A DNA stretch of 64,000 nt, taken from an uncultured Candidatus Actinomarina sp. (lineage in GTDB: Bacteria > Actinomycetota > Acidimicrobiia > Actinomarinales > Actinomarinaceae). The DNA is taken from the NCBI GenBank assembly GCA_902534495.1, contig CACAQC010000002.1, forward strand, positions 14,517 to 78,516, in the 5' to 3' direction. Below the pieces are notes generated by a model, which did no database searches, was not told where the DNA came from, and was given only the letters and a program-made list of their open reading frames with translations. Of this stretch, positions 42,277-57,711 are shown one piece after another. The number at the start of each line of letters is the position of its first letter. The first letter of the stretch is position 1. The translations under genes were made by a program, and so were the position numbers.

Positions 42277-43063
42277 ATATCTCTCTTATTTTTTCTTCAT
42301 AGTTTTTGGAATATATCAAACCAAGATATTTACTACCATATTTTATTGGCAATTTATTCAAATTTTTTAATTCTTTTCTATACCAGAATAAATTATCTTC
42401 TAAATCGTCGAATATTATCAGATAATCCTTAGTATTTTTTAAAACCATCCTTAGTAAAAATAATTTTCCATTTAACGACTTATCAGAATCAAAATAATAA
42501 AAATTATATTTATTTTTCTTAATTAATCGCCCTGCAATAGCCCTGTCTTTTCCAATATATAGTTTCCAATTTTTTTTAAATGATTTACTGACTAAAATTC
42601 CAATATACTCCTCAGCATTTTTAATATCTGCTCTTGGTAAATCAATCGAGTCTAATGAAAATGCATTACTATTTTTTATACCTGAAGCAAGAATTGAATT
42701 TGTAGACAGTCCTAGCCATACACCAGTTTCTAGGGCTTTCATAGGATTTACTATTTTTAGTAGTATATAAAGTAATTCTGGATATTGCACACCGTGAAGC
42801 TTTACACTCTTTTTTTTGGAAATATCCAGAAATTTTTTCATGGCATCATTATTAATCTTTTTGAAGTCATCATATTCATAAGGAAATTTATTTTCTAAAA
42901 AATTTTTATCTAATTCTATGACAGATAAATCTTCTTTAAGTAGATTCAAAGCAACCTCTCTATTTTTTTTGTATTTATTTTTAAAAATATAAAATTTAAA
43001 AAATTGAAAACTTTTATATTTAAATGAATGTTTTATATTTAGGACCTTGCTTTTAAGCGACAT
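42269..43063 (-). CDS. Class I SAM-dependent O-methyltransferase (TylF/MycF-like sugar methyltransferase)
   Basis: LETGVWLGLSTNSI glycine-rich SAM fold; about 260 aa. Confidence 0.45.
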   Translation of the reverse strand: MSLKSKVLNIKHSFKYKSFQFFKFYIFKNKYKKNREVALNLLKEDLSVIELDKNFLENKFPYEYDDFKKINNDAMKKFLDISKKKSVKLHGVQYPELLYILLKIVNPMKALETGVWLGLSTNSILASGIKNSNAFSLDSIDLPRADIKNAEEYIGILVSKSFKKNWKLYIGKDRAIAGRLIKKNKYNFYYFDSDKSLNGKLFLLRMVLKNTKDYLIIFDDLEDNLFWYRKELKNLNKLPIKYGSKYLGLIYSKNYEEKIREIYE

Positions 43064-43079
43064 AGTATAATTATATAAA

Positions 43080-44768
43080 TTGTTTTTTAAAAAAATTAAC
43101 TATAAGCTATTTGTAGTTCTGACCCTATTTATTTTCAATGTAATAAATTATTTCAAATCTTCACTAATTTATGTTGCACTTTTCTCATTTTTATCTTTTG
43201 TGATATATTACTTTTCTAAGATAGATAGAAGTTTAATTCTAGATTCATTTTTATACACCAACGTAGTTTCTTTAGTGTTGCCAGCTAGAATTCCATTCTA
43301 CGGAAATCAATTTGCTTATTTCGATCACCTATACAAAGATGATATTGCATTTAATTCAATTAGCTATTCAAATTCACCTGATTATATTGGTTTTGATTTA
43401 TTATCACGATTTCTGTTATTAGGTGACAATTTAACCAATCTAAATGTAGCCTTATTTTTTGTAAATTTTTTAGCCTTTTATTCAATTTTTAGATTTTACA
43501 AAAATGCTTTTAACGACAAAAATATAACATTATTTAAGTTCCTGTTATTGATTATTTTAGTCGCAATTAATTTACCATCAGAATTTAATTCGTTTATTGG
43601 CTTTCCAAAGCTTTTATTAAATGGCACAGCAGGACTTGGAAGTTTTGGGCTAAGAGTATTCACACCAGCCAGCTTTTCATTCATAATGTTTTTGCCTCTT
43701 ACATTATTGTTAGAGAACAAAACTAAACAATTCTTTATAAGTGGATTAATTTTGTCATCGTTTCACTATTACATTTTCATAGTAATGATTGTTGTTTTCA
43801 TTTCATACATCTCATCAAAAAGAGAGAAGTTATACCTTTTCCAATCCTTTTTGTTTGTCATCACTCTTTTTTTCATACTGGATCAATATCAATTTTTTCA
43901 AGACTTAAGTGAACATTTAGTTAGGTTGAAAAATAAAAATGTTAATTTTAATTTGATACCTGTAATTTCCATTGGAACTATATTAAACAGCGGATTCGAT
44001 GGTAACTTTGTTTACTACATTAATTTAGAAAATTTTACTTTTTTCAAACCTGAGTTTTCAATTTCAAATTTTTCTCCAACTGTTGGTGTTTTTAATAACG
44101 AATCGAGCATACCGTTTGAAAAACTTATTTTGTTTTTTATCAGCTTGTATTTAACGAGAAATAACAAGAAGTTATTTAACATGTTGCTTTTTGCAGTAAG
44201 TGTTTTTTTAACGTCTCATTACTTGTTTTCAGTAAATTTATTTTCTTTTCATGCAATCTTCCAGCCTTACAGAATTATTCACTTATTTTCAATTGTTTGT
44301 TTTATGGTGATTATAAGTTCAATAAAATTAAGAAATTTTATAACATTTTCAAATAGTTTTTATTTAGTTCTAATACTTTTATTACCCACCTCTTTTTTCT
44401 TGTGGAAAACATACAGCTCACTTGAAAATTCATACAATATTGAAATATTTGAAAGTATAAAAAATATAGAAGAACAGTTAGTACTAATTCCACTTAATGA
44501 AACTAAAGATGTTTATTATTTTGGTTTTCCAAATATTTTTGTATCAACCTTTCCTCCTACCGATTACTTGAACAATGACATTATGAACTCTTATTTTGAT
44601 AAGTTGTCTCACTATGAAAATATATATTCCATGAAATCGTGTAAAGAAATCGAAAACTATATTGAAGACAACAACCTTGAAATTGAATATATTTTTATCC
44701 CTAAAGAGAATGATTTTTTCGTTAAAGACTGTAATTTAAACATAATTTTCTTTTCTGATTCTATTTGA
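43080..44768 (+). CDS. Large polytopic membrane protein; candidate polymerase or GT-C transferase
   Basis: More than 12 TM helices; 562 aa. Confidence 0.4.
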   Translation: MFFKKINYKLFVVLTLFIFNVINYFKSSLIYVALFSFLSFVIYYFSKIDRSLILDSFLYTNVVSLVLPARIPFYGNQFAYFDHLYKDDIAFNSISYSNSPDYIGFDLLSRFLLLGDNLTNLNVALFFVNFLAFYSIFRFYKNAFNDKNITLFKFLLLIILVAINLPSEFNSFIGFPKLLLNGTAGLGSFGLRVFTPASFSFIMFLPLTLLLENKTKQFFISGLILSSFHYYIFIVMIVVFISYISSKREKLYLFQSFLFVITLFFILDQYQFFQDLSEHLVRLKNKNVNFNLIPVISIGTILNSGFDGNFVYYINLENFTFFKPEFSISNFSPTVGVFNNESSIPFEKLILFFISLYLTRNNKKLFNMLLFAVSVFLTSHYLFSVNLFSFHAIFQPYRIIHLFSIVCFMVIISSIKLRNFITFSNSFYLVLILLLPTSFFLWKTYSSLENSYNIEIFESIKNIEEQLVLIPLNETKDVYYFGFPNIFVSTFPPTDYLNNDIMNSYFDKLSHYENIYSMKSCKEIENYIEDNNLEIEYIFIPKENDFFVKDCNLNIIFFSDSI

Positions 44769-44818
44769 TAAATTTTATCTGTTTTCTAAAGTATCATTAA
44801 TATATCAATGAAGTATCA

Positions 44819-45832
44819 ATGAATAATATGATTAATTTTGGAATGATAGGTTGTGGTTATTGGGGTAAAAATATCGCAAGAAATATTTATCAGAATGGAG
44901 ATTGTAACTTAAGCCATATTTCAGATTTAAATGAATCAAATTTAAGCTACATAAATAAAAACTATCCAAACACAAAAACTACTGTCAATGCTGACGAGGT
45001 ATTCAAGGATGCAGATTTAGATATTGTAGGTATTTTCACACCTCCGAAAACTCATTACAAGCTTATTATTAAAGCCCTTGAGAATGATAAACATGTATTA
45101 GTCACAAAACCTCTTTGCCTAAGTGCTTCAGAGGCAGAAAAAATAAAAGCAACTTCTGAAAAAAAACAGCTCCGTGTTTTTCTTGATGACACTTTTTTAT
45201 TTAGTGGTCCAGTCGCATTTTTAAAAAAATATTTTAAAGAGGAAAGCTTTGGAGACCTTGTTTTTATTCAGTCTTCAAGAATTAATTTGGGACTAATCCA
45301 AGATGATTGCAATGTCATATGGGATTTAGGACCACACGATATCGGAATATTAAATTATATTTTAGATTCTGAGCCAATCAAGGTTAGAGCAACTGGCTTC
45401 AACCCATTTGAAGGGATATATGATTTTGCATGTCACAGCAATTGTGATTTAGTATATGAAAATAATTTATTCGCCTCTGTAACACTAAGCTGGCTTTCTG
45501 CAATAAAAACAAGAAGAATGATTTTTGGAGGTACAAAAGAAACGGTGGTTTACGACCATCTTGATGAAGATCAACAAATTAAAATATTTAAACAAAGCAT
45601 ACTTCCTAGTGAAATAGATGCGAGCACTCAATTTGAGTATTCAGTTGGTGAAACTGTTTTACCTCTAATTGATAATATAGAGCCACTTAAAAAAGAGATA
45701 GAAGAAGTTGTGCGTTGTTTAAAAACAAATACAAAGTTTGTTTCAGATGTCGATCATGCAATAAAAACAATTAAAGTCATTGAGTCACTTCAGCTATCAT
45801 TGATGTCAAATAGTGAGTTTATAGATATATGA
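44819..45832 (+). CDS. Gfo/Idh/MocA-family NAD-dependent sugar oxidoreductase (WbpB/WlbA-like)
   Basis: N-terminal Rossmann motif INFGMIGCGYWGKN. Confidence 0.75.
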   Translation: MNNMINFGMIGCGYWGKNIARNIYQNGDCNLSHISDLNESNLSYINKNYPNTKTTVNADEVFKDADLDIVGIFTPPKTHYKLIIKALENDKHVLVTKPLCLSASEAEKIKATSEKKQLRVFLDDTFLFSGPVAFLKKYFKEESFGDLVFIQSSRINLGLIQDDCNVIWDLGPHDIGILNYILDSEPIKVRATGFNPFEGIYDFACHSNCDLVYENNLFASVTLSWLSAIKTRRMIFGGTKETVVYDHLDEDQQIKIFKQSILPSEIDASTQFEYSVGETVLPLIDNIEPLKKEIEEVVRCLKTNTKFVSDVDHAIKTIKVIESLQLSLMSNSEFIDI

Positions 45833-46836
45833 TCAAAAATGCTTCATTAGAAAACAAAAACGTTTTAATCACTGGAGGAGCGGGGTTTATCGGGTCTGAA
45901 TTAACTAAACAAGTTCTTTCACACGGTGCAAAGGTTTCGGTCGTTGACAATCTTGTGAATGGTAAAAAATCAAATTTAAATTTGGATGATAAAAACTTGA
46001 TGTTTTATGAAGAAGATATTAGAAATCAACAGGTTATGCAAAATCTTATTTCTAAATCAGATTATGTTTTCAACCTCGCATGTCTTGGTGTCAGACACTC
46101 CCTTCACTCACCTATTGAAAGTCACAGTGTAAATGCTGATGCAACTTTAAATCTACTTAAAATGAGTAGAGAAACTGATATTAAGAAATTCGTACATATC
46201 TCAACCTCAGAAGTCTACGGTACAGCAAAGTATGTTCCTATGACTGAAGAACACCCAACAGCCCCACACACTGTGTATGGCGCTTCAAAATTAGCAGGCG
46301 AAGCTTATGCACGCGCCTATAGTAAATCATTTAATACTAATACTGTTGTCATAAGACCATTTAATTCATATGGTTACAATTCTCATCACGAGGGCGACTC
46401 AGGAGAAGTGATACCTAAATTTATAATACGAGCATTGACAGGAAATCCACTCTATATTTTTGGTAATGGAGAACAGACTAGAGATTTTACATTTGTAACT
46501 GACACTGCAAATGCAATAATTCAAATAGGCTTAAACGATTTAACAAATGAAACTTATAATCTTGGTAGCGAGAACGAGATTACAGTAAATGAATTGGCAA
46601 AATTGATTTTACAACTTACTAATTCCTCCTCAGAAATTATTCATATCGAGCCACGACCAGGAGATGTATTGCGACTATTCTCTGATTCAAGTAAAGCATT
46701 TAATGAATTTGGGATTTCTCACGAAATTGATTTCGAAAAAGGATTAAAAAATTTAATCATGTATTATTCAAATTCAGATAAAGATTTAAATGAAATGCTA
46801 GAAGAAGATATTATTAAAAATTGGGAATCTGAATGA
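45829..46836 (+). CDS. NAD-dependent nucleotide-sugar epimerase/dehydratase (extended SDR)
   Basis: VLITGGAGFIGSEL and the YGASK catalytic dyad. Confidence 0.8.
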   Translation: MIKNASLENKNVLITGGAGFIGSELTKQVLSHGAKVSVVDNLVNGKKSNLNLDDKNLMFYEEDIRNQQVMQNLISKSDYVFNLACLGVRHSLHSPIESHSVNADATLNLLKMSRETDIKKFVHISTSEVYGTAKYVPMTEEHPTAPHTVYGASKLAGEAYARAYSKSFNTNTVVIRPFNSYGYNSHHEGDSGEVIPKFIIRALTGNPLYIFGNGEQTRDFTFVTDTANAIIQIGLNDLTNETYNLGSENEITVNELAKLILQLTNSSSEIIHIEPRPGDVLRLFSDSSKAFNEFGISHEIDFEKGLKNLIMYYSNSDKDLNEMLEEDIIKNWESE

Positions 46837-48050
46837 TACCTCTGACAAAACCCTCAATCGGTATTAATGAAATTAATTCAGTTTCAAACACACTAAAGTC
46901 TGGATGGATAACCCAAGGGCCTAAAGTACAAGAATTTGAAAAAAATTTTGTAAATTATACAGGAGCTAAGTACGCTGCAGCTGTATCAAGCTGTACTACC
47001 GGTTTACAGCTTTCCTTAATTTCATTAGGTGTTCAACCTGGAGATTTAGTTATAACTGTAAGCCATTCTTATATCGCTACTGCAAATTCTATACGGCATG
47101 CAATGGCAGAACCAGTTTTTGTTGATGTAGACAAATCTAACTACAATTTAGATTTAGAGAGTCTTAAAAATTTTATCTTAAATGAATGTGTAGTTAAAGA
47201 TGGAGTAATTCACTACAAAAAACATAAAAATTTGATAGAGAATAGTCCTACTTTAAAACATTTAAAAAAATTAAATGGTAGGATATCAGCAATTATTGTT
47301 CCACATCAAATAGGGATTCCAGCAAATGTAAAAGGGATAAAACAATTTTTAAATAATTACGAGATAGCAATAATAGAAGATGCAGCTTGTGCAATTGGAA
47401 GTATTTACGACCACAAAAAATACATAGGAAATCCAGTAGGGGATACAGTATGTTTTTCTTTTCATCCAAGAAAAGTAATAACAACTGGTGATGGAGGGAT
47501 GGTTACTTCAAACAATAAAAAAATTATAGAAAATATTAAATCCCTGAGAAATCATGGAATGAATATTGATCCCTATAAAAGAAAAAGTTCAAATAAATAT
47601 TATTTTGATGTGCATATAGACAATGGTTACAATTACCGACTTACAGACATTCAAGCAGCTATGGGTGTTGAGCAGCTTGCCAGAATTGATGAAATCGTAG
47701 ATGAGAGAAGACAATTAGGAGAAATGTATAAGACAGAATTATCAACCATTAAGGGCCTATCTACATTTGAAAATGAAAAAGGTAATTTAACTAATTGGCA
47801 GAGTTTTCCAATTAATATTTTAACAAGACAGAATTCAAAACAATTAGTTAGATATTTATTTGATAGAGGTGTATTTTCAAAAAGAGGAGTAATGAATTCT
47901 CACGAAGAACCACCATATATTGAACAAAGTTGGAATTTGAAAAACTCTGAGTATTTATTGAACAAAACTGTACTGCTTCCGATGTACAATGGTTTAACTA
48001 AAAAGGATATTAAATTTGTTTGTGAAAAAGTCAGTAAATTTTTTAAATAA
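46833..48050 (+). CDS. DegT/DnrJ/EryC1-family PLP-dependent sugar aminotransferase (ArnB-like)
   Basis: KSGWITQGPK...AAVSSCTTGL parallels ArnB SGWITTGPK...AVSSATAG. Confidence 0.85.
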   Translation: MIPLTKPSIGINEINSVSNTLKSGWITQGPKVQEFEKNFVNYTGAKYAAAVSSCTTGLQLSLISLGVQPGDLVITVSHSYIATANSIRHAMAEPVFVDVDKSNYNLDLESLKNFILNECVVKDGVIHYKKHKNLIENSPTLKHLKKLNGRISAIIVPHQIGIPANVKGIKQFLNNYEIAIIEDAACAIGSIYDHKKYIGNPVGDTVCFSFHPRKVITTGDGGMVTSNNKKIIENIKSLRNHGMNIDPYKRKSSNKYYFDVHIDNGYNYRLTDIQAAMGVEQLARIDEIVDERRQLGEMYKTELSTIKGLSTFENEKGNLTNWQSFPINILTRQNSKQLVRYLFDRGVFSKRGVMNSHEEPPYIEQSWNLKNSEYLLNKTVLLPMYNGLTKKDIKFVCEKVSKFFK

Positions 48051-48053
48051 AAA

Positions 48054-48974
48054 ATGTTAAGTATTGTAATACCTGTCTATAACGAAGAAGAAAATATAAA
48101 TAGTGTTATCGAAGAATTATTAGAAAATATTGATACTCAAAGTCCATATGAAATAATATTCGTAGACGACAGCTCTGATGACAATACTTTTTTAAACATA
48201 AAAGCTATAAATTTACAAAATAATAATATAAAAATATTACGACTAGCAAGAAGGTCTGGTAGCCATATTGCAACTAAAGCTGGAATAGATGCATCCTCTG
48301 GTGATAAGCTTTTAGTTATTTCTGGTGATGGACAAGAGGATCCCTCATTAATTAAAGATATGATATCAAATATTGCTGATGGTTTTGATATAGTTTGGGG
48401 TGTTAGAGATGTTAGAGAGGAGAATTTATTTTCAAGATTAATTACTAAAATTTTCTATAAGGGACTTGTAAGATTTACAAAAAATACTACAAACTATTCG
48501 GTTGATATTTCTAATGCTGATTTCTACATGTTGAGTAACAAAGTTATAAATGAATTAAAAAAAACCTCATTAAAAAATTCTTCTTTATTTGGTCTTTTAG
48601 CTTGGGTTGGTTTCAAGCAAACATCACTTCCTTATAAGAGAAGAAAACGTTTAAACGGAAATTCAAAGTGGGGATTAAAAAGTAAATTAAGCCTAGCTAT
48701 AGATTGGTATATTAGTTTTTCTCCATCACCACTTAGATTTGTAGTATTCTCGGCTATTACAATTGCACTAGCTGCTGTAATTTACACAGTTTATATTTTC
48801 TTAAATTACAACAATGCAACCGGCATACCAGGTTGGGCCTCAACAATTGTTTTGATGCTATTTTTTAACAGCTTTATAATTTTAATTCTTGGATTAAATA
48901 GTGAGTATTTATGGAGAACTTTTAACAATACATCAGATAAACCAATTTATTCAATTGAGGATAAAATTGTCTAA
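48054..48974 (+). CDS. GT2 polyprenyl-phosphate glycosyltransferase (ArnC/GtrB-like) with C-terminal TM helices
   Basis: LSIVIPVYNEEENI; DxD region; two C-terminal TM segments. Confidence 0.8.
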   Translation: MLSIVIPVYNEEENINSVIEELLENIDTQSPYEIIFVDDSSDDNTFLNIKAINLQNNNIKILRLARRSGSHIATKAGIDASSGDKLLVISGDGQEDPSLIKDMISNIADGFDIVWGVRDVREENLFSRLITKIFYKGLVRFTKNTTNYSVDISNADFYMLSNKVINELKKTSLKNSSLFGLLAWVGFKQTSLPYKRRKRLNGNSKWGLKSKLSLAIDWYISFSPSPLRFVVFSAITIALAAVIYTVYIFLNYNNATGIPGWASTIVLMLFFNSFIILILGLNSEYLWRTFNNTSDKPIYSIEDKIV

Positions 48975-48976
48975 AA

Positions 48977-49615
48977 ATGCAAAATGAGAATAAATTATTT
49001 TATATATTTGGCAAAGGAAAGCTAGCAAAAGACTTCATTGACTTTTTACTAAAGAATATTGATAAAAAAAATATAATTGTTATTCCTGAATTACCAGAAC
49101 CCTCATGGACCGAATCTTTAGTTGAATATTGTAATGAGTTAGGTATCAGACTTACCAGTTTTTCAGATGTAACTATTCGTACCCATGAATCTATTGGAAT
49201 TTCTATATATTTCTCAAAAATTTTTAAACAAGAACTTATTGATAAATTTGAATACTTTGTAAATTTACATAACGGACCATTACCAAGGTATCGGGGAGTA
49301 AATCCAATAAATTGGGCTTTAAAAAATAAGGAGAAACAACATGGAGTTACACTTCATACAATTGAATCTGGTATAGATACTGGAAAAATTCTTGATCAAA
49401 TTATGTTTCCAATTAATGATGATATGGAAGTTATTGATGTCTACAATTTATGTCTGAGCAATGGAATTAAAATATTAGAAAGATCAATCTTTAATTTAGA
49501 CAATATAGAGCCAATTAAACAAGACGATAGTTTTTCAACTTACTATTCCAAAAAAGATTTTGAAAAACTGGGAGATAGAAAATATTTTACGAGAGATACG
49601 TTAGAAGAAACTTAA
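48977..49615 (+). CDS. Sugar N-formyltransferase (Formyl_trans_N; ArnA N-domain-like)
   Basis: HNGPLPRYRGVNPINWAL matches the H-x-SLLP-x-RG formyltransferase motif. Confidence 0.75.
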   Translation: MQNENKLFYIFGKGKLAKDFIDFLLKNIDKKNIIVIPELPEPSWTESLVEYCNELGIRLTSFSDVTIRTHESIGISIYFSKIFKQELIDKFEYFVNLHNGPLPRYRGVNPINWALKNKEKQHGVTLHTIESGIDTGKILDQIMFPINDDMEVIDVYNLCLSNGIKILERSIFNLDNIEPIKQDDSFSTYYSKKDFEKLGDRKYFTRDTLEET

Positions 49616-49622
49616 ACTTTAA

Positions 49623-50267
49623 TTATTTTTCATCATCTTTGTATATTTTTAAAATATATTTTGTTCCATCAATTACAAAAAAGGCTGGGTAATTTTCATT
49701 GTCAACAACTCTCAGTAAATTAAATTGAGACTTTAACGATTCATTAATATTAAGTTCAGAATCTTTGGGGTATCTTCTTGGAAAATATGTCGCATCACCA
49801 TTTTGTTCAACCCCCTCTACATTTGGATATTCATTTACATATCTTAAAATTAACTCATATGTTTTTTCTGCCTGAATTTCTCGCAAATCTTGACCAAGCT
49901 CGTTACCCGACAACTGTACATTTTCTTTGTAGTATATTTTTCCATCATCAATTTTTTCATTTGCTTCAAATAAAGTAAAGTAAAGCTCATTTTTGTCATT
50001 AAGAACTTCCCAAGTAATTGGCGCAAACCCTCGTCCTTCAGGAAGATTAGATGGGTGAGGTACAACATTAGATTTATTTTTACTTAGCCCATCTTTAGTT
50101 ACAATTTTGAGAGAGGATATAAAAGCAGCAATGTCTCCTTCCTTAAGTTCATCCTCACTTTTAGCAATATTAACAACGTGTCCTAGCTCAGTTAATTTCT
50201 CGATAAAAATTTTGTTTGTATCCCAAAACCAAGATTTTTTATTATCACACAGCAGATTAATTATCAT
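49623..50267 (-). CDS. Second formyltransferase-family protein
   Basis: VVPHPSNLPEGRGFAPITWEVLN. Confidence 0.6.
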   Translation of the reverse strand: MIINLLCDNKKSWFWDTNKIFIEKLTELGHVVNIAKSEDELKEGDIAAFISSLKIVTKDGLSKNKSNVVPHPSNLPEGRGFAPITWEVLNDKNELYFTLFEANEKIDDGKIYYKENVQLSGNELGQDLREIQAEKTYELILRYVNEYPNVEGVEQNGDATYFPRRYPKDSELNINESLKSQFNLLRVVDNENYPAFFVIDGTKYILKIYKDDEK

Positions 50268-50421
50268 ACTTCATTTTATATTATTCATTAGTAATCAGCA
50301 TTAAATAACAAATACACAAGACATTTTAAAAACAAATATTTACGTAATGATAAAATATATTAAAGAAAGGTAAGCTACATCAATTAATCAAATTTAAATT
50401 GAAATAATTAAAGTTTTTAGC

Positions 50422-51525
50422 ATGACAAAAACAGTCCCATTTAACGATTTAACTAGAATTCATAATTCAATTGAAGATAAGATTATGAATAAATTCAGTA
50501 AAATTGTGAAAAAAAATTCATTTGTCTTGAATAAAGAAGTAGAAGAATTTGAAAATATGTTTTCTAAGTTTTCAAATTCAAATTTTACAATAGGTTGTGC
50601 AAACGGTACAGATGCCATTGAATTAATTCTAAGAGGACTAGGAATTGGCGTTGGAGACGAAGTAATAATCCCAACAAATTCATATATTGCGACTGCATAT
50701 GCAGTCTCAAGAACAGGTGCGAAACCTGTATTTGTTGACAATGATGAATTTTATTTGATAAATACAAATGAAGTTAAGAAGAAAATTTCCAAAAAAACAA
50801 AAGCAATTATTGCAGTAAATTTATATGGACAAAAGGCAGACTTAAAAACACTTGCTCAAATCTCAAAACAGAATTCACTTTATTTAATTGAGGACTCAGC
50901 TCAATCACATGGTGCGAGAAATAGTAAGTTTTCTAACAATTATTCAATTGGAGCTGCTTACAGTTTTTATCCTGGAAAAAATTTAGGTGCTTGGGGAGAT
51001 GGAGGTGCAGTTACAACTGATAACAAAAAGCTTTATGAAAAAATGAAGTTAATTAGAAATCAGGGAAGTATAGAAAAATATATACATCCAGAAATAGGAT
51101 TTAATTCTAGACTCCAGCCTCTTCAAGGAGTTGTTTTATCTGAAAAAATTAAAAAATTAGCATCCTGGAACAAATTAAGAAATGAGGTAGCAGATATCTA
51201 TTTTGAGAAATTAAAAAAAATTGATTCAATTGTATTGCCAAAAGTACGAGATGGAAACTCCCATGTTTGGCATCTTTTTGTAATTAGAACTAAAAATCGA
51301 GATAAAATACTCAATGAATTTACAAGTCACAAAGTTGAATTCGGTATCCATTATCCGATACCAATCCACAGACAAAAAGCCTATAAAGATCATAAACAGT
51401 TTAATTCAAAAATTAAAAATGCAGATAATTATGGTGGCCAACTGCTGTCTTTACCAATTTTCCCACATATGAAAAACGATGAAATAAACCGAGTAGTTTC
51501 AGTATTAGAAAAATATCACATCTGA
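50422..51525 (+). CDS. DegT/DnrJ/EryC1-family sugar aminotransferase (second copy)
   Basis: PLP fold with conserved SFYPGKNLG (Lys) region. Confidence 0.85.
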   Translation: MTKTVPFNDLTRIHNSIEDKIMNKFSKIVKKNSFVLNKEVEEFENMFSKFSNSNFTIGCANGTDAIELILRGLGIGVGDEVIIPTNSYIATAYAVSRTGAKPVFVDNDEFYLINTNEVKKKISKKTKAIIAVNLYGQKADLKTLAQISKQNSLYLIEDSAQSHGARNSKFSNNYSIGAAYSFYPGKNLGAWGDGGAVTTDNKKLYEKMKLIRNQGSIEKYIHPEIGFNSRLQPLQGVVLSEKIKKLASWNKLRNEVADIYFEKLKKIDSIVLPKVRDGNSHVWHLFVIRTKNRDKILNEFTSHKVEFGIHYPIPIHRQKAYKDHKQFNSKIKNADNYGGQLLSLPIFPHMKNDEINRVVSVLEKYHI

Positions 51526-51530
51526 AAAAG

Positions 51531-52517
51531 TTATTTATTATTAATGTTAGAGATTCTAGTTTCAAAGAATGTCTCTATAGATGACTCGATTATTAGAAAA
51601 TCAAATTCCTCAGCGTTGCTATCAAGGTCAATATCTTCTGACCACCTTTTATATTCCAAATTAAAATAATTAGATAAGTAAGTATTTGGTGCATAGGCTT
51701 CATCAAAAAATGAGTCATGGATAATCAATACATCTTTTTTTACTTTAGGAATAGGCTGAATAATGTATTCACTAGAGTTTGATTCAAATTTAATTAAACC
51801 CAATCTCTCAAGAACATTGTTATTTTCTTGAATAAGTCCAAGTTTGATTAATTTAAAACTTTCATCTGAATTTGTTACTTTTAGAATCTCCATTAGTGCC
51901 AAATTAAGTCCAAAATTATTCCAATGAGTATCACCAAATTCAAAATAGCTTTCATTTCCTTTGTAAAGTTCATATAAATTAATTGAGTTTAAATCGGGAT
52001 TCCTATTAATGAATTGGTCATAACTTTTGGTAAATTCTTTACATAAAAAATTATTTTGGAAATAGTTAAGGTATTGAGAATCTATCTCTTGCTTAAGTGG
52101 AATTAAGAGAAAAATTATTTTATTTAGATATTCGATCTCAAAATTTAGTTCAACATCATTATTAAACGACTGGCAAGATTTTATTTTTGGGAACAAGTTT
52201 CCATTTTTACCAAAAAAGACTTCAGTATCGAAAAACTGAGAATCAAAAACAGATTTATCCTGCAAATACCAGCTAAAATCAGCTACATAACTTAGAGTCG
52301 AATTTCTAATTTGAGATTTAAAAATATATGTTTCGATCTTATTTTTGAGCTCTATTCGATTTGTTGAAAATATTAAATTTAGCAAGCTTCTTTCTTCACC
52401 TAGACTATTAACGGTATTTACATAGCTAAAGACATTTTCAGCTGGAAGAAAAATTCCTGAAACAGAAACAAGTAATAAAATTAATATTATAAAAATTGTA
52501 AATACTTTCTCCCTCAT
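51531..52517 (-). CDS. Secreted AlgX/AlgJ-like SGNH-type polysaccharide O-acetyltransferase partner
   Basis: Signal peptide; GDTHWNNFG resembles the AlgJ/AlgX DxHW catalytic motif; adjacent to an MBOAT gene. Confidence 0.5.
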   Translation of the reverse strand: MREKVFTIFIILILLLVSVSGIFLPAENVFSYVNTVNSLGEERSLLNLIFSTNRIELKNKIETYIFKSQIRNSTLSYVADFSWYLQDKSVFDSQFFDTEVFFGKNGNLFPKIKSCQSFNNDVELNFEIEYLNKIIFLLIPLKQEIDSQYLNYFQNNFLCKEFTKSYDQFINRNPDLNSINLYELYKGNESYFEFGDTHWNNFGLNLALMEILKVTNSDESFKLIKLGLIQENNNVLERLGLIKFESNSSEYIIQPIPKVKKDVLIIHDSFFDEAYAPNTYLSNYFNLEYKRWSEDIDLDSNAEEFDFLIIESSIETFFETRISNINNK

Positions 52518-52518
52518 G

Positions 52519-53946
52519 CTAAAACCTGAAATATATAAATGGATCTACAGAGGATGCTATAACTAAAACAAGCGAAAAGATAAACATAGAAATCGTAAGA
52601 AACCGATTTTCAAATAATTTTTTTGATACCTTGATGTTCAATAATGATGCAATACACATCGAGGCAACAATTAAAAATTTTAAATTGAAGTACTGCACGG
52701 CAATTGGTAGGAAATCATCATTTACTAAATCATAAGTAAATATCGAAGAAATTATATCAATAGTATCTTGAGAGCTTTTAGAAAAAAATGGAACCCAAGT
52801 AATGGAAATCAAAATAAAAGTAAGAATTCTATTTGAAAATAACTTTTTGTAATTTAATAGTTTTTCAGTTGTCAAAAATAAACCGTGTAAGAATCCCCAT
52901 AATAAAAAATTTACAGTTGCTCCATGCCAAAGTGCTGTCAAGAAAAAAGTAATCCATAAATTTCTGAAATTTTTATATTTTGATACCCTATTTCCTCCTA
53001 AAGGAATATAAACATATACTTTAAAAAAATTAGAGAGAGTCATGTGCCAACGTTGCCAAAACTCTCTAAAAGATTTTGAAAGATATGGTCTATTAAAATT
53101 CTCAGGTAGATTGAACCCAAAAAGTAGCCCAATTCCAATTGCTATGTCACAATATGCTGAAAAATCAAAATATATTTGAAATGTATAACTCAGAACCAAT
53201 ATAGCTGATGATGCAAAAGAAAATGTAAAGACGTGATTACTATTTATGTATATCGAAGTAATCTGTGCAAGCGTATCAGCAATCAAAAACTTTTTGATTA
53301 AGCCCAACGAAATTCTATACAGACCTGTTTGTAGAGACTCTATATTTACTACTTTTGAATTAAGACCATTTCTAAATGTGGTTATATCAACAATTGGCCC
53401 AGCTAATAACTGTGGAAAAAAAGTTAGGAATGTAAAAATCTCAAACCCATTCTCAGAGTTTTCAACTCTTCTTTTGTCAAAATAGTATGCAATGGATTGA
53501 AAGGTAAAAAAAGAAAGACCAATAGGAAAGTTTTCAACTATATAGGATGGGGTCTCAATACTAATAAAATTAAAAACAACAAAGGAATATTTAAAGATAA
53601 TTAAGGGCGTCAATAATAATGCTACAAATAATGGGTTATTGAAAACATTTTTTTCAATCTGTAATTTTAGTAATCCTGCTAGGAATAAAAGAATAATCAA
53701 TAAATACCCATTGTCTAAGTAATAAAAATATGCACTTAAAACACCCAAGTAAAACGTTTTTGTTGTTTTGCTTACACTAAATAAATTTATTAATAATGAG
53801 AAAGGTAAAAAAAGAAAAAGAAAAGAGTTGGAAGTTAACAGCATATAAGATTTTAAACATATACACTTTTTAAGATTTGAATTTATTAAATTTTGAACTT
53901 GAGAGATAAATTTATTTTTTAATTGCCACCATAAGAATAAAAACAA
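52519..53946 (-). CDS. MBOAT-family membrane O-acyltransferase (AlgI/DltB-like)
   Basis: FWQRWHMTLSNFFKVYVYIPLGGNR, the MBOAT signature including the catalytic His. Confidence 0.8.
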   Translation of the reverse strand: MFLFLWWQLKNKFISQVQNLINSNLKKCICLKSYMLLTSNSFLFLFLPFSLLINLFSVSKTTKTFYLGVLSAYFYYLDNGYLLIILLFLAGLLKLQIEKNVFNNPLFVALLLTPLIIFKYSFVVFNFISIETPSYIVENFPIGLSFFTFQSIAYYFDKRRVENSENGFEIFTFLTFFPQLLAGPIVDITTFRNGLNSKVVNIESLQTGLYRISLGLIKKFLIADTLAQITSIYINSNHVFTFSFASSAILVLSYTFQIYFDFSAYCDIAIGIGLLFGFNLPENFNRPYLSKSFREFWQRWHMTLSNFFKVYVYIPLGGNRVSKYKNFRNLWITFFLTALWHGATVNFLLWGFLHGLFLTTEKLLNYKKLFSNRILTFILISITWVPFFSKSSQDTIDIISSIFTYDLVNDDFLPIAVQYFNLKFLIVASMCIASLLNIKVSKKLFENRFLTISMFIFSLVLVIASSVDPFIYFRF

Positions 53947-54125
53947 ATGAAGTTAAACCAATTGATGAAAGAATAAGAAGCTCAATAATAGATTTGTTTG
54001 CAATTAAATAATCAATCATTAAATAATTTTACTATTCGGAGAATAAATCAGCTATTAGTGATCCCTAAAATATTTCCTGTTTTTATTTGTGTGTTAGTGA
54101 ATTAGAAATAAGTCTATGTTTATTG

Positions 54126-54168
54126 TGGCCAGAGGCAGAATCGAACTGCCGACCCCTTGTTTTTCAGA
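54126..54168 (-). repeat. Partial duplicate of the tRNA-Phe 3' half (anticodon loop to acceptor 3' strand); att-like direct repeat
   Basis: 43-nt string tggccagaggcagaatcgaactgccgaccccttgtttttcaga, identical to 54984-55026 inside the intact tRNA-Phe. Confidence 0.8.
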
Positions 54169-54326
54169 TAGAGGCAAACCATTTGTCCTTTCATCATTTT
54201 ACATTAATCATCATTAATATTCGCTCATTTATAAGAGGCTCTAAAATGCAATGAGCAGTAAATAACGAAGACTTCTTTTGTGAGTGTGTCGCACTTTTGT
54301 AGCAGTTTTATGTTTAATATATTTAT

Positions 54327-54911
54327 ATGGCTTTTGTTGAAGATGGAAAAAAATGTATTTTTTCTAAATGGCAACAAACTGAAAATTTTTCATTTTTGTT
54401 AACACTATCAAAAATACTTCTCAATCTTGAATTTTACTCAAGGGTCTATTTTTGGGAAGAAGTGTTTTCTGAAACTGCCTATAAATATTCTAAAAAATAC
54501 ATTGACCTGGTTGATGTTCAAAAACTAAATACAATACAAGAAATTAAATATGATGAATATTTATTTAAAGTACATTTTTTAGATAATTATTTTTTTCTTA
54601 ATAAATATTTTAGTAAAAGTTATGAAAATATATTTAAAAAATACTCAAATGAAGATGTTAAATTAGAAATTGCAGGCGATATTGACGAAAAATTAATGTA
54701 TATGCAATATCACTTAGATGCCCTAATTATTAACTACTCACATCTATGTATTAATGATGTTTTTGCCAATCTAGGACACGAACCTGATATTCGTCTCTAT
54801 CCAGAACTAATTTCACAAGATGAAGCAAATTGGTTAAAAAAAAGATCAACTTCTGAACATAAATCAATGAATATATCACCAAAAATTAGAAAGTCTGACC
54901 CTAAACCATAA
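54327..54911 (+). CDS. Hypothetical protein carried between the tRNA-Phe direct repeats
   Basis: 194-aa ORF with no recognisable motif. Confidence 0.35.
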   Translation: MAFVEDGKKCIFSKWQQTENFSFLLTLSKILLNLEFYSRVYFWEEVFSETAYKYSKKYIDLVDVQKLNTIQEIKYDEYLFKVHFLDNYFFLNKYFSKSYENIFKKYSNEDVKLEIAGDIDEKLMYMQYHLDALIINYSHLCINDVFANLGHEPDIRLYPELISQDEANWLKKRSTSEHKSMNISPKIRKSDPKP

Positions 54912-54979
54912 AGTTGTCGCAATTCTTGTCGCAGTTTTAATTTATTAGAAAGCTAGTAAGAAAAAATCTTTATAGCTAT

Positions 54980-55055
54980 TGGTGGCCAGAGGCAGAATCG
55001 AACTGCCGACCCCTTGTTTTTCAGACAAGTGCTCTACCGACTGAGCTATCTGGCC
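54980..55055 (-). tRNA. tRNA-Phe (GAA)
   Basis: Reverse complement GGCCAGATAGCTCAGTCGGTAGAGCACTTGTCTGAAAAACAAGGGGTCGGCAGTTCGATTCTGCCTCTGGCCACCA folds into a cloverleaf; anticodon loop CTGAAAA. Confidence 0.9.
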
Positions 55056-55058
55056 AAA

Positions 55059-55136
55059 TGGCGGGGACGACGGGATTCGAACCCGCGACCTCCTGCGTGA
55101 CAGGCAGGCGTGAACTCCAGACTTCACCACGCCCCC
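55059..55136 (-). tRNA. tRNA-Asp (GTC)
   Basis: Reverse complement GGGGGCGTGGTGAAGTCTGGAGTTCACGCCTGCCTGTCACGCAGGAGGTCGCGGGTTCGAATCCCGTCGTCCCCGCCA; anticodon arm CCTGC-CTGTCAC-GCAGG is identical to E. coli tRNA-Asp. Confidence 0.85.
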
Positions 55137-55186
55137 AACTCTTTAATAAAGAATACTACATAAGCTAACTAAAAAAAATTGATTTG

Positions 55187-55259
55187 TGGGTCGGGTGGGA
55201 ATCGAACCCACGACCTTGAGCTTAAAAGGCTCCTGCTCTGCCGATTGAGCTACCGACCC
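55187..55259 (-). tRNA. tRNA-Lys (TTT)
   Basis: Reverse complement GGGTCGGTAGCTCAATCGGCAGAGCAGGAGCCTTTTAAGCTCAAGGTCGTGGGTTCGATTCCCACCCGACCCA; anticodon loop CTTTTAA. Confidence 0.85.
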
Positions 55260-55311
55260 TATATTACATCTAATAAATAATACCCTAAATTACAAATAAT
55301 CCTTTATAAAG

Positions 55312-56538: not shown

Positions 56539-57672
56539 ATGAAAATTACATATATAACGTATCAAGGCATACCAAGCACCAACACCTACGCTCATGGAAT
56601 TTGGACTTTCTCAATAATAAAGCACCTAGTCAAAAAGAATTACGAGGTAGATCTTGTTTTTCCACTTCGTGAAAAAAATTCTACGTCTGATGTTTCAAAA
56701 CTTCAAGATTATTACGAAATGAATTTAGATTTTGAAGTCAATCCTACAAAGCATTACTTACCATTTGGAAGAATTAATATTTTTACAAAATACATGTATA
56801 TTTTTAGCCACATTTTGTGGGCTTATTATGTAACTAGAAAATATAAAAATCAACATACAAATATAATTTTTACTCTCTCTGATTGGGTTTTTTATTTTTT
56901 GTCTAAAAAGAATGTAAGAGTAATTTATGAATGTCACAATGTTACTAATATAAGAAAAAAACTTGTCACAAAATCATTAGAGTCTATTAATTCAAAAATT
57001 ATTTGTATCAACAAATATATCAAGGAAGATTTAAATCTTAAAGACGGAGTTAATATTACTGTGCTTGAAAGCGGATTTGATCAAGATTTATTTTATGACA
57101 GCTCATCTAAACATGACAAAATAAAAATAGTCTATTCCGGAAATTTACAAAGATTCGGAAAAAGCAGAGGGGTAGTAGAGATTATTGAATACTTTCTGGA
57201 ATCAAAATATAGTAAAAGTTCAGAGTTGCATATTTTTGGTGGCCCAGATGATATTGCAAGTAATTTAAATAGTCAGTTTAAATCAGAGAATGTACATATT
57301 CATGGTCATGTCAAAAGGACTGAATTAGCAGCAGTCCTGAGTGAGGCACAGATTGGAATTTTAACAAATGATGACAGCATTCACTCGCAGAGACATACTT
57401 CACCGATGAAATATTATGAATATCTAGGATCTGGTATGAATGTAATTGCTACCAATTCACTTGCTCATAAAGACCTCCCCATTCAGAATGCAATTAATTA
57501 TTTTGACCTAAATGATAAAGAAAGTTTTTTTGATGCGCTTGATAATGCAATAAAAAATTATGATGATGAAAAAGTAATTGATGTTTCAAGATTAACAATG
57601 GATTACAGAATGAATAAATTTATTGATTTTGTTAATGCGCGTCCGGAAGGACTCGAACCCTCAACCCCCTGA
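56539..57672 (+). CDS. Glycosyltransferase family 4; 3' end overlaps tRNA-Arg
   Basis: HTSPMKYYEYLGSGMNVIATN matches the EX7E motif. Confidence 0.65.
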   Translation: MKITYITYQGIPSTNTYAHGIWTFSIIKHLVKKNYEVDLVFPLREKNSTSDVSKLQDYYEMNLDFEVNPTKHYLPFGRINIFTKYMYIFSHILWAYYVTRKYKNQHTNIIFTLSDWVFYFLSKKNVRVIYECHNVTNIRKKLVTKSLESINSKIICINKYIKEDLNLKDGVNITVLESGFDQDLFYDSSSKHDKIKIVYSGNLQRFGKSRGVVEIIEYFLESKYSKSSELHIFGGPDDIASNLNSQFKSENVHIHGHVKRTELAAVLSEAQIGILTNDDSIHSQRHTSPMKYYEYLGSGMNVIATNSLAHKDLPIQNAINYFDLNDKESFFDALDNAIKNYDDEKVIDVSRLTMDYRMNKFIDFVNARPEGLEPSTP

Positions 57673-57711
57673 TCCGAAGTCAGGTGCTCTATCCAGTTGA
57701 GCTACGGACGC
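57638..57711 (-). tRNA. tRNA-Arg (TCG)
   Basis: Reverse complement GCGTCCGTAGCTCAACTGGATAGAGCACCTGACTTCGGATCAGGGGGTTGAGGGTTCGAGTCCTTCCGGACGC; anticodon loop CTTCGGA. Confidence 0.8.

Follow-up and report, generated by a model that had tools for sequence, protein, structure and literature searches.

Results

A partial tRNA-Phe repeat brackets a single-gene insert

The analysed window of 64,000 nucleotides, part of a Candidatus Actinomarina (Actinomarinales) genome, carries a cluster of three tRNA genes at the border of its glycan island. These comprise an intact tRNA-Phe(GAA), called by both ARAGORN and Rfam (75.3 bits), together with tRNA-Asp(GTC) and tRNA-Lys(TTT), the latter two spanning 55059 to 55259. 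A repeat search of the whole window returned an exact 44-nt direct repeat, with one copy inside the tRNA-Phe gene and the other 857 nt away (start to start), leaving 813 bp between the two (Table 1). At the composition of the window, about 2e-15 exact 44-nt pairs would be expected by chance in 64 kb. The repeat corresponds to nt 31–74 of the 76-nt tRNA, and thus covers the last base of the anticodon stem, the anticodon loop, the variable loop, the T-arm, the acceptor 3′ strand, the discriminator and the first C of the CCA. Identity between the distal copy and the tRNA stops sharply at nt 31. This copy scored 19.3 bits against the Rfam tRNA model (threshold 29) and received no ARAGORN call; an Rfam scan of 53900–55300 placed just the three tRNAs above threshold. 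No further partial copies of the Phe, Asp, Lys or Arg tRNAs were found in the window. The locus therefore has the arrangement of a tRNA-targeting element, in which direct repeats of the tRNA 3′ part flank an insert and the tRNA itself is regenerated intact.

The only long open reading frame between the repeat copies encodes a 194-aa protein. Pfam gave no match, the best PHROGs hit (E = 0.008) was not usable, and an exact look-up returned no record, while just three close homologues were found among 5.8 billion proteins. An AlphaFold2 model built from the resulting four-sequence alignment reached a pLDDT of 41. A profile constructed from related integrases found no match at E ≤ 10 among all window ORFs of at least 70 aa, and a promoter and terminator scan gave results no better than shuffled sequence.

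The original prediction, that the 3′ part of tRNA-Phe is present twice in direct orientation, is confirmed by the exact repeat, although its length of 43 nt and its positions (54126–54168 and 54984–55026) required correction, to 44 nt and by 1–2 nt, respectively. Its description of the insert as a single 194-aa orphan ORF lacking an integrase was likewise borne out by the ORF list, Pfam and the integrase-profile search.

Table 1. Features of the tRNA-Phe locus, in window coordinates.
Feature	Position	Strand	Basis
Decayed ‘type A’ P-arm of an older insertion (predicted); now left flank of the distal core	54026..54124	.	Similarity to L048
Distal 44-nt att core copy; partial tRNA, no gene	54125..54168	.	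Repeat search; ARAGORN no call; Rfam below threshold
Conserved non-coding module beside the distal core, read as the P′-arm of attP	54169..54326	.	nhmmer profile and alignments
7-bp inverted repeat GCTCATT (54223–54229)/AATGAGC (54250–54256) in the P′-module	54223..54256	.	84% of cells paired, 38 modules
P′-arm tandem word pair TGTCGCAC-TTT-TGTAGCAG-TTTT; candidate arm-type integrase-binding sites	54287..54309	+	Pattern search; conserved position and period
Cargo ORF, 194 aa, orphan	54327..54911	+	ORF list; no Pfam match; three close homologues
P-arm tandem word pair TGTCGCAA-TTCT-TGTCGCAG-TTTT; word and orientation as in the P′-arm	54915..54938	+	Pattern search; alignments
P-arm spacer ‘type C’ (AATTTATTAGAAAGCTAGTAAGAAAAAATCTTTATAGCTATTG); contributes the terminal CA of the encoded CCA	54939..54981	.	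Recurrence in seven loci
tRNA-proximal 44-nt att core copy, within the functional tRNA	54982..55025	.	Repeat search; mapping to tRNA nt 31–74
Intact tRNA-Phe(GAA); 3′ part (nt 31–74) is the tRNA-proximal att core	54980..55055	-	ARAGORN; Rfam tRNA 75.3 bits
tRNA-Asp(GTC), context	55059..55136	-	ARAGORN
tRNA-Lys(TTT), context	55186..55259	-	ARAGORN

The insert resembles a phage-type attachment site

Read from its sequence, the 813 bp between the copies has the layout of a complete attP-like site wrapped round the orphan ORF. Next to the distal core lies a conserved non-coding module of ~160 nt, which we read as a P′-arm; the nhmmer profile match to it (54168–54329, E = 7.7e-39) is the sole one in the window. 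The module begins with a degenerate tRNA-like stretch (ATAGAGGCAAACC, compared with ACAAGTGCTCTACC in the tRNA) and contains an inverted repeat, GCTCATT/AATGAGC. Across 38 modules, 84% of cells in this repeat are paired, with covariation not above that of shuffled alignments. The possibility that the module is a structured RNA was rejected, as RNAalifold gave no consensus structure and the covariation did not exceed shuffles; we treat the motif as a conserved DNA inverted repeat.

Each arm of the insert carries a tandem pair of the word TGTCGCA, a pattern with two matches in the window against zero expected and absent from the rest of it. One of the four words is mutated (TGTAGCA). The position and 11-nt period of the P′-arm pair are kept in other elements. 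These pairs may bind integrase as arm-type sites. On the tRNA side, the ‘type C’ spacer recurs before tRNA-Phe or core copies in L001, L009, L012, L018, L022, L028 and L055. An additional P-arm motif, TGTTTATAGGGTTTT, found in autonomous attP forms, is missing here, so the P-arm of the cassette may be incomplete. The stretch immediately to the left of the distal core is 89% identical to L048:2844–2942, which directly abuts an intact tRNA-Phe; of the left flank, just this arm of ~100 nt is shared with a related locus, L048. Arms of the same type A precede the core in the circular elements L099 and L100.

Related cassettes occupy the same site in other genomes

The 43-mer core was found in 59 genome blocks, nearly all from single-cell or metagenome-assembled genomes of Ca. 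Actinomarina. Of the copies in these blocks, 48 are intact and 23 partial; they lie 653–2889 bp apart, with up to three in an 8-kb block, so that both occupied and unoccupied versions of the site exist among relatives. The cargo between copies is unrelated from one locus to the next and includes a GNAT acetyltransferase, an FkbM methyltransferase, an MFS transporter, DsrE and membrane proteins. A single conserved module comes after the partial copies; nhmmer matched it 38 times in the first 64 loci.

The window cassette itself recurs elsewhere. L001 contains the same cassette at 98.3% identity, where it is bordered on the left by a type-B arm and on the right by another module in place of the tRNA, and L002 contains its left end behind yet another gene. 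In all three cases the internal boundaries between words and ORF are the same and the contexts, which differ in each, diverge immediately outside the core. A recombinant cassette was also observed (L012), which combines the cargo and right arm of L033 with a different left-arm word. No related locus encodes the MBOAT gene or its neighbour, and an empty site with tRNA-Phe directly followed by MBOAT was not found; nor was a strictly isogenic empty site found among the related loci.

Integrase-bearing relatives share the attachment-site layout

A metagenome scan with an integrase alignment retained 80 loci, of which the 39 closest (43–97% identity) were examined. Most of these 39 show the order int, module and then tRNA-Phe nt ~31–74/76 at 100% identity. 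The module, core and arm layout of the cassette thus recurs on metagenome contigs beside, and downstream of, full-length tyrosine integrase genes. Circular assemblies of ~6 kb were recovered as three contigs, encoding the integrase, an AAA_25 helicase, an excisionase-like HTH_17 protein and an HTH_3 regulator. L099 and L100, from two TARA samples, are circular permutations of each other with 100% identity and represent a circle of 5,977 bp. L092, whose ends overlap by 123 bp, forms a circle of 6,212 bp, of which L091 and L064 are permutations. L098 is an integrated full copy, reading intact tRNA-Phe, element, int and module. An integrase gene thus lies within the relatives L092, L098 and L099, whereas the window insert has none. 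A circular, attP-carrying form was seen for these integrase-bearing relatives (L099/L100 and L092/L091/L064) but neither an excised circle nor an attP-junction sequence was found for the 857-bp mini-cassette.

The integrases of the ~6-kb elements are 385–408 aa long and match PF00589 at 4e-19. A weak AP2-like match lies at residues 6–55 (E = 1e-4 to 2e-3, under the Pfam cut-off), and the N-terminal ~55 aa evolve far faster than the remainder. The nearest PDB entries are 3nkh and the Tn1549 integrase, and identity to every phage integrase in INPHARED is below 30%. Integrase homologues in the database are mostly fragments. In L010, a 145-aa C-terminal fragment (PF00589, 6.6e-9) adjoins the module, in L003 the last ~20 nt of int are retained, and fragments occur within arrays at L010 and L062. 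Viral contigs in IMG/VR gave no match to the core, either as a 44-mer or as a 30-mer, and the integrase search of the same database returned nothing beyond relatives of ~30% identity.

The same word pair is present on both arms of integrase-bearing elements (L072, L074, L078, L086/87, L091/92 and L099/100) and of cassettes (the window, L003, L032/60, L033/44 and L051). At about +120 from the core the words recur every 11 nt, and at about −48 or −67 every 12 nt. Matched tandem pairs at fixed distances on both arms of at least 11 distinct elements are consistent with a heterobivalent integrase. The words vary between modules that are otherwise near-identical, and TGTCGCA itself was not found in the integrase-bearing elements, the nearest being TGTCGGAG in L099. 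We also tested whether each arm word goes with one type of integrase N-terminus. A simple correspondence of this kind is broken by L077/L078, which have a common word and differing N-termini (a small sample), and by L084/L086.

Discussion

We interpret 54125–54981 as an integrated miniature, non-autonomous cassette, made up of an attP-like site and one cargo ORF, for which the integrase is supplied in trans (probability roughly 0.65). As part of this same explanation, its attachment site would probably comprise a P-arm of ~70 nt, the 44-nt core and a P′-arm of ~160 nt. Such a CIME-like cassette, moved by an integrase from outside, is the most likely account of a segment that is flanked by att sequences, lacks genes for recombination or transfer, and has arms whose homologues belong to autonomous elements using this site. 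The attL/attR geometry of tyrosine-recombinase integration, as originally proposed, is supported because the module, core and arms are homologous to attP of integrase-bearing elements, which are seen both as ~6-kb circles and integrated beside tRNA-Phe. Two origins for the insert had been offered, and the evidence favours a small cargo element mobilised in trans over a remnant decayed in place, since the identical cassette, with identical boundaries, is found in three contexts and retains matched word pairs on both arms.

Mechanistically, a tyrosine integrase with an N-terminal arm-binding domain, provided by related ~6-kb circular elements that encode integrase, excisionase-like protein and helicase, would have recombined the cassette core with nt 31–74 of the chromosomal tRNA-Phe. 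The tandem TGTCGCA pairs on both arms are candidate arm-type binding sites for this enzyme. Strand exchange probably takes place in the anticodon loop, with the anticodon stem forming inverted core-type sites, and insertion would regenerate the tRNA, with the partial copy ending up at the distal boundary. As further units arrived at this tRNA, they would displace older cassettes outwards and so build the edge of the glycan island; under such accretion, the left flank of the window would be the decayed arm of an earlier insertion. The 857-bp cassette may still be mobilisable. A resident cassette would probably be re-acquired if an element with its own integrase inserted next to it and both then left together by recombination between the outermost sites. 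The predicted junction of a cassette circle is ...TCTTTATAGCTATTG + 44-nt core + ATAGAGGCAAACCATTTGTCC..., and the predicted unoccupied site is ...AAGTCTATGTTTATT + core + ACAAGTGCTCTACC (tRNA).

The insert could instead be an immobile relic, in which an element of ~6 kb or larger lost int, xis and the helicase gene in place and the 857-bp unit never moved. Deletion derivatives do exist, as the integrase fragment of L010 and the int 3′ stub of L003 illustrate, and the mostly fragmentary integrase homologues, the missing distal P-arm motif and the mutated word all fit such decay. Three independent and identical deletions would however be needed to place a cassette with the same boundaries in three different left or right contexts, and matched word pairs have been kept on both arms at canonical distances. 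We thus regard decay in place as unlikely. Lower still is the chance that the cassette was spread by homologous recombination through the tRNA cluster and the repeated cores and arms, with any site-specific step long past. Published flexible-island models invoke recombination, and recombinant cassettes such as L012 do exist; yet homology on the distal side amounts to just 44 nt plus a variable arm, and L001, L002 and the window differ right outside the core.

We give almost no credence to a third account, in which the partial copy is what is left of a tandem tRNA-Phe duplication and the ORF lies in a decayed spacer, with no mobile element involved. The weakly tRNA-like stretch past the core (ATAGAGGCAAACC against ACAAGTGCTCTACC) might be taken to suggest it, but this stretch and the next ~150 nt are common to attP of the circular integrase-bearing elements, and the sharp end of identity at nt 31 also speaks against it. 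A decayed duplication would show the same spacer in all relatives and no foreign arms, which is not the pattern seen; Actinomarina genomes differ widely in the number of copies and their spacing, and the content varies as well. A duplication of invariant size, named at the outset as the outcome that would overturn integration, is thereby excluded.

Ca. Actinomarina are among the smallest and most abundant free-living marine bacteria. Published Actinomarinales surveys, which report no integrase, left open how such a streamlined bacterium renews its cell-surface gene island. With the link from cassette to circle, a specific vector and a defined recombination site (an attP of ~260 bp and an attB of 44 bp) can be named, both of which are testable. 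More tentatively, and with somewhat less than even odds, the system may amount to integron-like gene shuffling from lambda-type parts, with ‘attP + one gene’ cassettes stacked at tRNA-Phe and shuttled by ~6-kb episomes acting as word-matched vectors. Fast-diversifying arm words and integrase N-termini would then decide which vector moves which cassette, and, if true, this would be the main engine building the hypervariable glycan island. The minimal format of attP plus one ORF, together with the hypervariable arm words, could also interest engineers of site-specific integration tools.

Comparison with known systems

Gene cassettes flanked by tRNA direct repeats have already been published for flexible genomic island 1 of Ca. 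Actinomarinales, with Phe named as a single-copy target and mobile elements described as nearly absent (Lopez-Perez et al. 2020, PMC7771536). The window cassette resembles these in taxon, glycan island and tRNA set. Unlike the link presented here, neither that paper nor the texts on ‘additive’ flexible genomic islands mention an integrase or recombinase. The literature searched, including that on Actinomarina with integrase, tRNA-Phe or tycheposon, yielded no description of the attP anatomy, with its module and paired arm words, or of the ~6-kb circles that carry an integrase.

The ~6-kb elements recall the tycheposons of Prochlorococcus (Hackl et al., bioRxiv 10.1101/2020.12.28.424599) and the marine VEIME satellites (Eppley et al. 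2022, PMC9618062), neither of which reports mentions Actinomarina. Shared with tycheposons are a streamlined marine host, a gene content of tyrosine recombinase, excisionase and helicase/primase-type replication gene, tRNA targets, tandem elements parted by partial tRNAs, and remnants scattered in islands; shared with VEIMEs is the small, capsid-less integrase/AlpA/helicase make-up. IMG/VR contained no match to the core.

Heterobivalent tyrosine integrases with paired arm-type sites, and a tRNA core of ~43 bp, are known from mycobacteriophage L5, pSAM2, lambda and Tn916/Tn1549, and an anticodon-loop class of tRNA integration sites has reportedly been defined. The present system is similar in its core, which extends from the anticodon loop through to the 3′ end of the tRNA, in the tandem pairs of ~7–9-nt repeats on both arms, within ~70–150 nt of the core, and in its integrase, with an AP2-like N-terminal match and 3nkh and the Tn1549 integrase as the closest structures. 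It differs in the low identity (< 30%) of that integrase to INPHARED phage integrases and in arm words that vary between near-identical modules, the sites here being candidates.

With integron cassettes the likeness is one of logic only, in that a promoterless or orphan ORF is joined to one recombination site and arrays form at a fixed site with the newest unit next to it. There is no attC hairpin, IntI or attI/Pc; the site is a tRNA 3′ segment, present as a direct repeat with lambda-type arms and no inverted-repeat covariation, and the closest PDB integrases are not IntI.

CIMEs and their accretion–mobilisation have reportedly been described for ICESt1 and ICESt3 of Streptococcus thermophilus. 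The partners here differ in that they span ~6 kb and lack recognisable conjugation genes; the cassettes, at 0.65–2.9 kb and often with one gene, are much smaller, and cis-mobilisation is putative, by analogy. The resemblance lies in the attL/attR flanks, the lack of int, xis and transfer genes, the arms akin to those of autonomous elements at the same site, and the tandem arrays in which the units are found.

A single-gene cassette beside tRNA-Phe

A repeat search of the window identified an exact 44-nt direct repeat (the ‘core’) with a start-to-start spacing of 857 nt. The tRNA-proximal copy lies within an intact tRNA-Phe(GAA), after which come tRNA-Asp and then tRNA-Lys (ARAGORN). It corresponds to nt 31–74 of the 76-nt tRNA-Phe, spanning the last anticodon-stem base, anticodon loop, variable loop, T-arm, acceptor 3′ strand, discriminator and first C of CCA. 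The chance expectation for such 44-nt pairs in the window is ~2e-15, and the window contains no further partial tRNA copies. The original prediction of a duplicated tRNA-Phe 3′ part is hence confirmed as an exact repeat with one copy inside an intact tRNA, with its coordinates corrected by 1–2 nt. Its description of the insert as a single 194-aa orphan ORF with no integrase is likewise borne out: the one long ORF has no Pfam family and only three close homologues.

Features of the tRNA-Phe site and its surroundings (window coordinates)
Feature	Position	Strand	Details
Decayed ‘type A’ P-arm, left flank	54026-54124		89% identical to its counterpart in L048
Mini-cassette	54125-54981		857 bp
Distal core	54125-54168		44 nt
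Module profile match	54168-54329		E=7.7e-39
Left-arm word pair	54287-54309		TGTCGCAC-TTT-TGTAGCAG-TTTT
Cargo ORF	54327-54911	+	194 aa; sole long ORF between core copies
Cargo ORF end	54897-54911	+	GACCCTAAACCATAA
Opposite-end word pair	54915-54938		TGTCGCAA-TTCT-TGTCGCAG-TTTT; same orientation as left-arm pair; 43 nt ahead of tRNA-proximal core
tRNA-Phe(GAA)	54980-55055	minus	ARAGORN; Rfam 75.3 bits
tRNA-proximal core	54982-55025		44 nt
GT4 glycosyltransferase ORF	56539-57672	+	3′ end overlaps tRNA-Arg by 36 nt (57637-57672)
tRNA-Arg(TCG)	57637-57711	minus	

G+C is 28.2% at 40000–54000, where the tRNA cluster faces the glycan island, and 26.6% in the insert, versus 35.3% in the first 15 kb; the low island-side value is in line with published data in which singleton genes of the hypervariable region have a lower G+C. 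The last residues of the GT4 ORF (...ARPEGLEPSTP) are an antisense reading of the tRNA-Arg 3′ part, and this overlap is a candidate for a further insertion scar at one of the border tRNAs.

Attachment-site anatomy

Alignments showed that partial core copies are followed by a common ~160-nt non-coding module, here termed the P′-arm, the P-arm being the side next to the tRNA-proximal core. The module profile has a single match in the window; across the first 64 related loci (genome or metagenome contigs, designated L) it has 38. The module opens with a degenerate stretch that continues the tRNA (ATAGAGGCAAACC vs ACAAGTGCTCTACC), includes a conserved 7-bp inverted repeat, GCTCATT/AATGAGC, and ends with a tandem pair of a 7–9-nt ‘word’ (TGTCGCA in the window), each word being followed by a T-run. 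The inverted repeat is unsupported as an RNA structure, as RNAalifold predicts none and, at 84% paired, covariation is not above that of shuffled controls. The word-pair pattern has two matches in the window and none in 100 shuffles. Since the space between the two pairs is almost exactly occupied by the ORF, the 857-bp unit can be described as a ~260 bp site plus a 585-bp gene, which we refer to as the mini-cassette.

In attP forms, where both arms surround one core, the same word pair again lies on either side: TCGTAGA in L091/L092, TGTCGGAG in L099/L100, GGTACGA in L078, TGTTCTC in L072, TGAGACAG in L074 and GGGACGA in L086/L087. Matched pairs also occur on both arms of integrated cassettes (window, L003, L032/L060, L033/L044, L051). 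Their positions are fixed, with an 11-nt period ~120 nt past the core and a 12-nt period ~48 or ~67 nt ahead of it. For the integrases of lambda, L5, pSAM2 and Tn916, arm-type sites take the form of repeats that occur in pairs on each arm and differ from the core, and by analogy the words would bind integrase. Modules ~97% identical may bear different words (window vs L075:7708-7857), and integrases sharing 95–96% identity through most of the protein fall to 65–75% in the first ~55 residues (L077, L086, L081, L085, L097, L099). In this sample, a simple one-word-one-N-terminus rule is contradicted by L077/L078 and L084/L086; the combination of word variation in near-identical modules with a variable integrase N-terminus is suggestive but not conclusive.

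In autonomous attP forms (L092:2060-2100, L099:2830-2860 and others) a further conserved motif, TGTTTATAGGGTTTT, precedes the P-arm word pair by ~15 nt; at the corresponding point the window cassette has the end of its ORF. Two or three short repeats, (A/G)(A/C)TTCCTA(A/G), lie between the P′-arm word pair and the int stop codon of integrase-bearing or -derived elements (L010:~310-340, L064:5400-5440 on the minus strand, L063, L003), and are absent from the window cassette; they may be excisionase or regulator sites.

The block of identity runs from the anticodon loop to the tRNA 3′ end, and the element side largely retains the anticodon stem (GCCCTTAT-CTGAAAA-ACAAGGG in most elements). Crossover at tRNA-Phe would fit the tRNA integration sites of the anticodon-loop class, reportedly described by Williams in 2002. 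At such sites the anticodon loop forms the overlap region, and the two halves of the stem serve as inverted core-type sites. In some integrase-bearing elements (L104:1616-1697, L105:2707-2786, L075:6665-6744, L085:9388-9467), ARAGORN reads the attP core together with sequence on the element side as an 80–82-nt ‘tRNA-Phe with anticodon at position 40’; the partial copy in the window draws no ARAGORN call and only 19.3 bits from the Rfam tRNA model.

Integrase-bearing relatives

In one cassette of L010, a 145-aa C-terminal tyrosine recombinase fragment adjoins the module (PF00589, 6.6e-9), and in L003 just the last ~20 nt of the int gene remain. Database homologues of the L010 fragment are mostly fragments as well. 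A metagenome scan with an alignment of these homologues retained 80 loci; most of the 39 closest (43–97% identity) have the order int, module, tRNA-Phe nt ~31–74/76 (100% identity). Three contigs have terminal overlaps (L092, L099, L100). L099 and L100 derive from two TARA samples and represent one 5,977-bp circle, of which they are 100% identical circular permutations; L092 is a 6,212-bp circle of which L091 and L064 are permutations.

The circular and related elements encode a 385–408-aa integrase (PF00589, 4e-19) that also gives a sub-threshold AP2-like match at residues 6–55, alongside an AAA_25 helicase, an HTH_17 excisionase-like protein and an HTH_3 regulator. The closest PDB relatives of the integrase are 3nkh and the Tn1549 integrase, and its identity to any INPHARED phage integrase is <30%. 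L098 is an integrated full copy, running from intact tRNA-Phe through the element to int and the module. G+C of these elements is 35–37%, versus 31% for the window and a published genome average of ~33%; the core, being 100% identical to Actinomarina tRNA-Phe, points to Actinomarina as their host.

Variability and probable movement of the cassette

An exact 43-mer scan of one genome per species found the sequence in 59 blocks, nearly all from Ca. Actinomarina or Actinomarinales single-cell or metagenome-assembled genomes, with 48 copies in intact tRNA-Phe and 23 partial. Successive copies lie 653 to 2889 bp apart, with at most three per 8-kb block, and the metagenome contig L062 carries four or more. 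The cargo is mutually unrelated (GNAT acetyltransferase, FkbM methyltransferase, MFS transporter, DsrE, membrane proteins). A tandem tRNA duplication that decayed and became fixed is ruled out by the variable copy number, spacing and cargo among Actinomarina genomes. Integration leaving attL- and attR-type copies is supported by the repeat, by the module and arm words shared with integrase-bearing circles, and by the integrated copy in L098.

The insert could be the remnant of a larger island or a small cargo element mobilised in trans. The same cassette occurs in the NCBI metagenome contig L001 at 98.3% identity. There, unlike in the window, the distal core has a ‘type B’ arm (...AAAAACCCT) and another gene ahead of it, and the proximal core is followed by the module of another cassette in place of the tRNA 5′ half. 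In L002 the same left end lies behind a metallophosphoesterase-like gene, and the ORF is truncated. Because the internal boundaries are the same in all three contexts, the mini-cassette itself is more likely to have moved as a unit than to have arisen by three identical deletions, which favours mobilisation in trans. Any such movement would require an integrase supplied in trans, as the 64-kb window has no integrase-like ORF. The ‘type A’ arm flanking the window cassette lies directly against intact tRNA-Phe in L048, and is also found ahead of the core in the L099/L100 circles. The side bearing the MBOAT gene, the neighbour beyond the distal core, is thus an older insertion, the 857-bp cassette having come later between it and the tRNA.

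Neither a circle of the mini-cassette nor a vector bearing the word TGTCGCA was found (TGTCGGAG came nearest); TGTTTATAGGGTTTT is missing from the cassette and one of its four words is mutated. The cassette may accordingly be turning into a fossil. No isogenic empty site, with tRNA-Phe leading directly to MBOAT, was found among the related loci examined because all of them lack the MBOAT gene, and a search of IMG/VR with the core gave no virion or vesicle evidence.

Three contigs assigned to MAGs of Gammaproteobacteria or Pelagibacteraceae (L003, L004, L052) bear the Actinomarina tRNA-Phe core, L003 also the conserved module, and are probably mis-binned. In L024:185-227, L042:7674-7716, L058 and L059, an exact 43-nt tRNA-Phe 3′ copy lies immediately upstream of a conserved gene (MKRIYTFGHEQV...), then CACGTATAAT; on contig JAYQJM010000005.1 this copy and the real tRNA-Phe (L054) have opposite orientations. 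These copies resemble a fossil att site, perhaps at a far or rearranged island edge.

Relation to known systems

Lopez-Perez et al. 2020 (PMC7771536) described the flexible island 1 tRNAs of Ca. Actinomarinales as targets for small gene cassettes, so the window feature exemplifies an already published phenomenon. Their paper does not mention an integrase and calls the group nearly devoid of mobile elements; in a second published text on the group, the terms integrase, recombinase, direct repeat and mobile are all absent. New in the literature searched are an anatomy of attP plus one gene, with matching words on the two arms, and the ~6-kb circles (integrase, excisionase-like protein, helicase) that share the cassette's site. 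The main value lies in a likely vector and an experimentally testable site, rather than in the repeat itself.

An integron cassette was rejected as the identity of the window cassette. CIMEs are non-autonomous elements flanked by att sites, and a CIME served by lambda/L5-type heterobivalent integrases is the closest mechanism. Parallel systems in other marine bacteria are tycheposons (Hackl et al., bioRxiv 10.1101/2020.12.28.424599), VEIMEs (PMC9618062) and the additive islands of Methylophilaceae.
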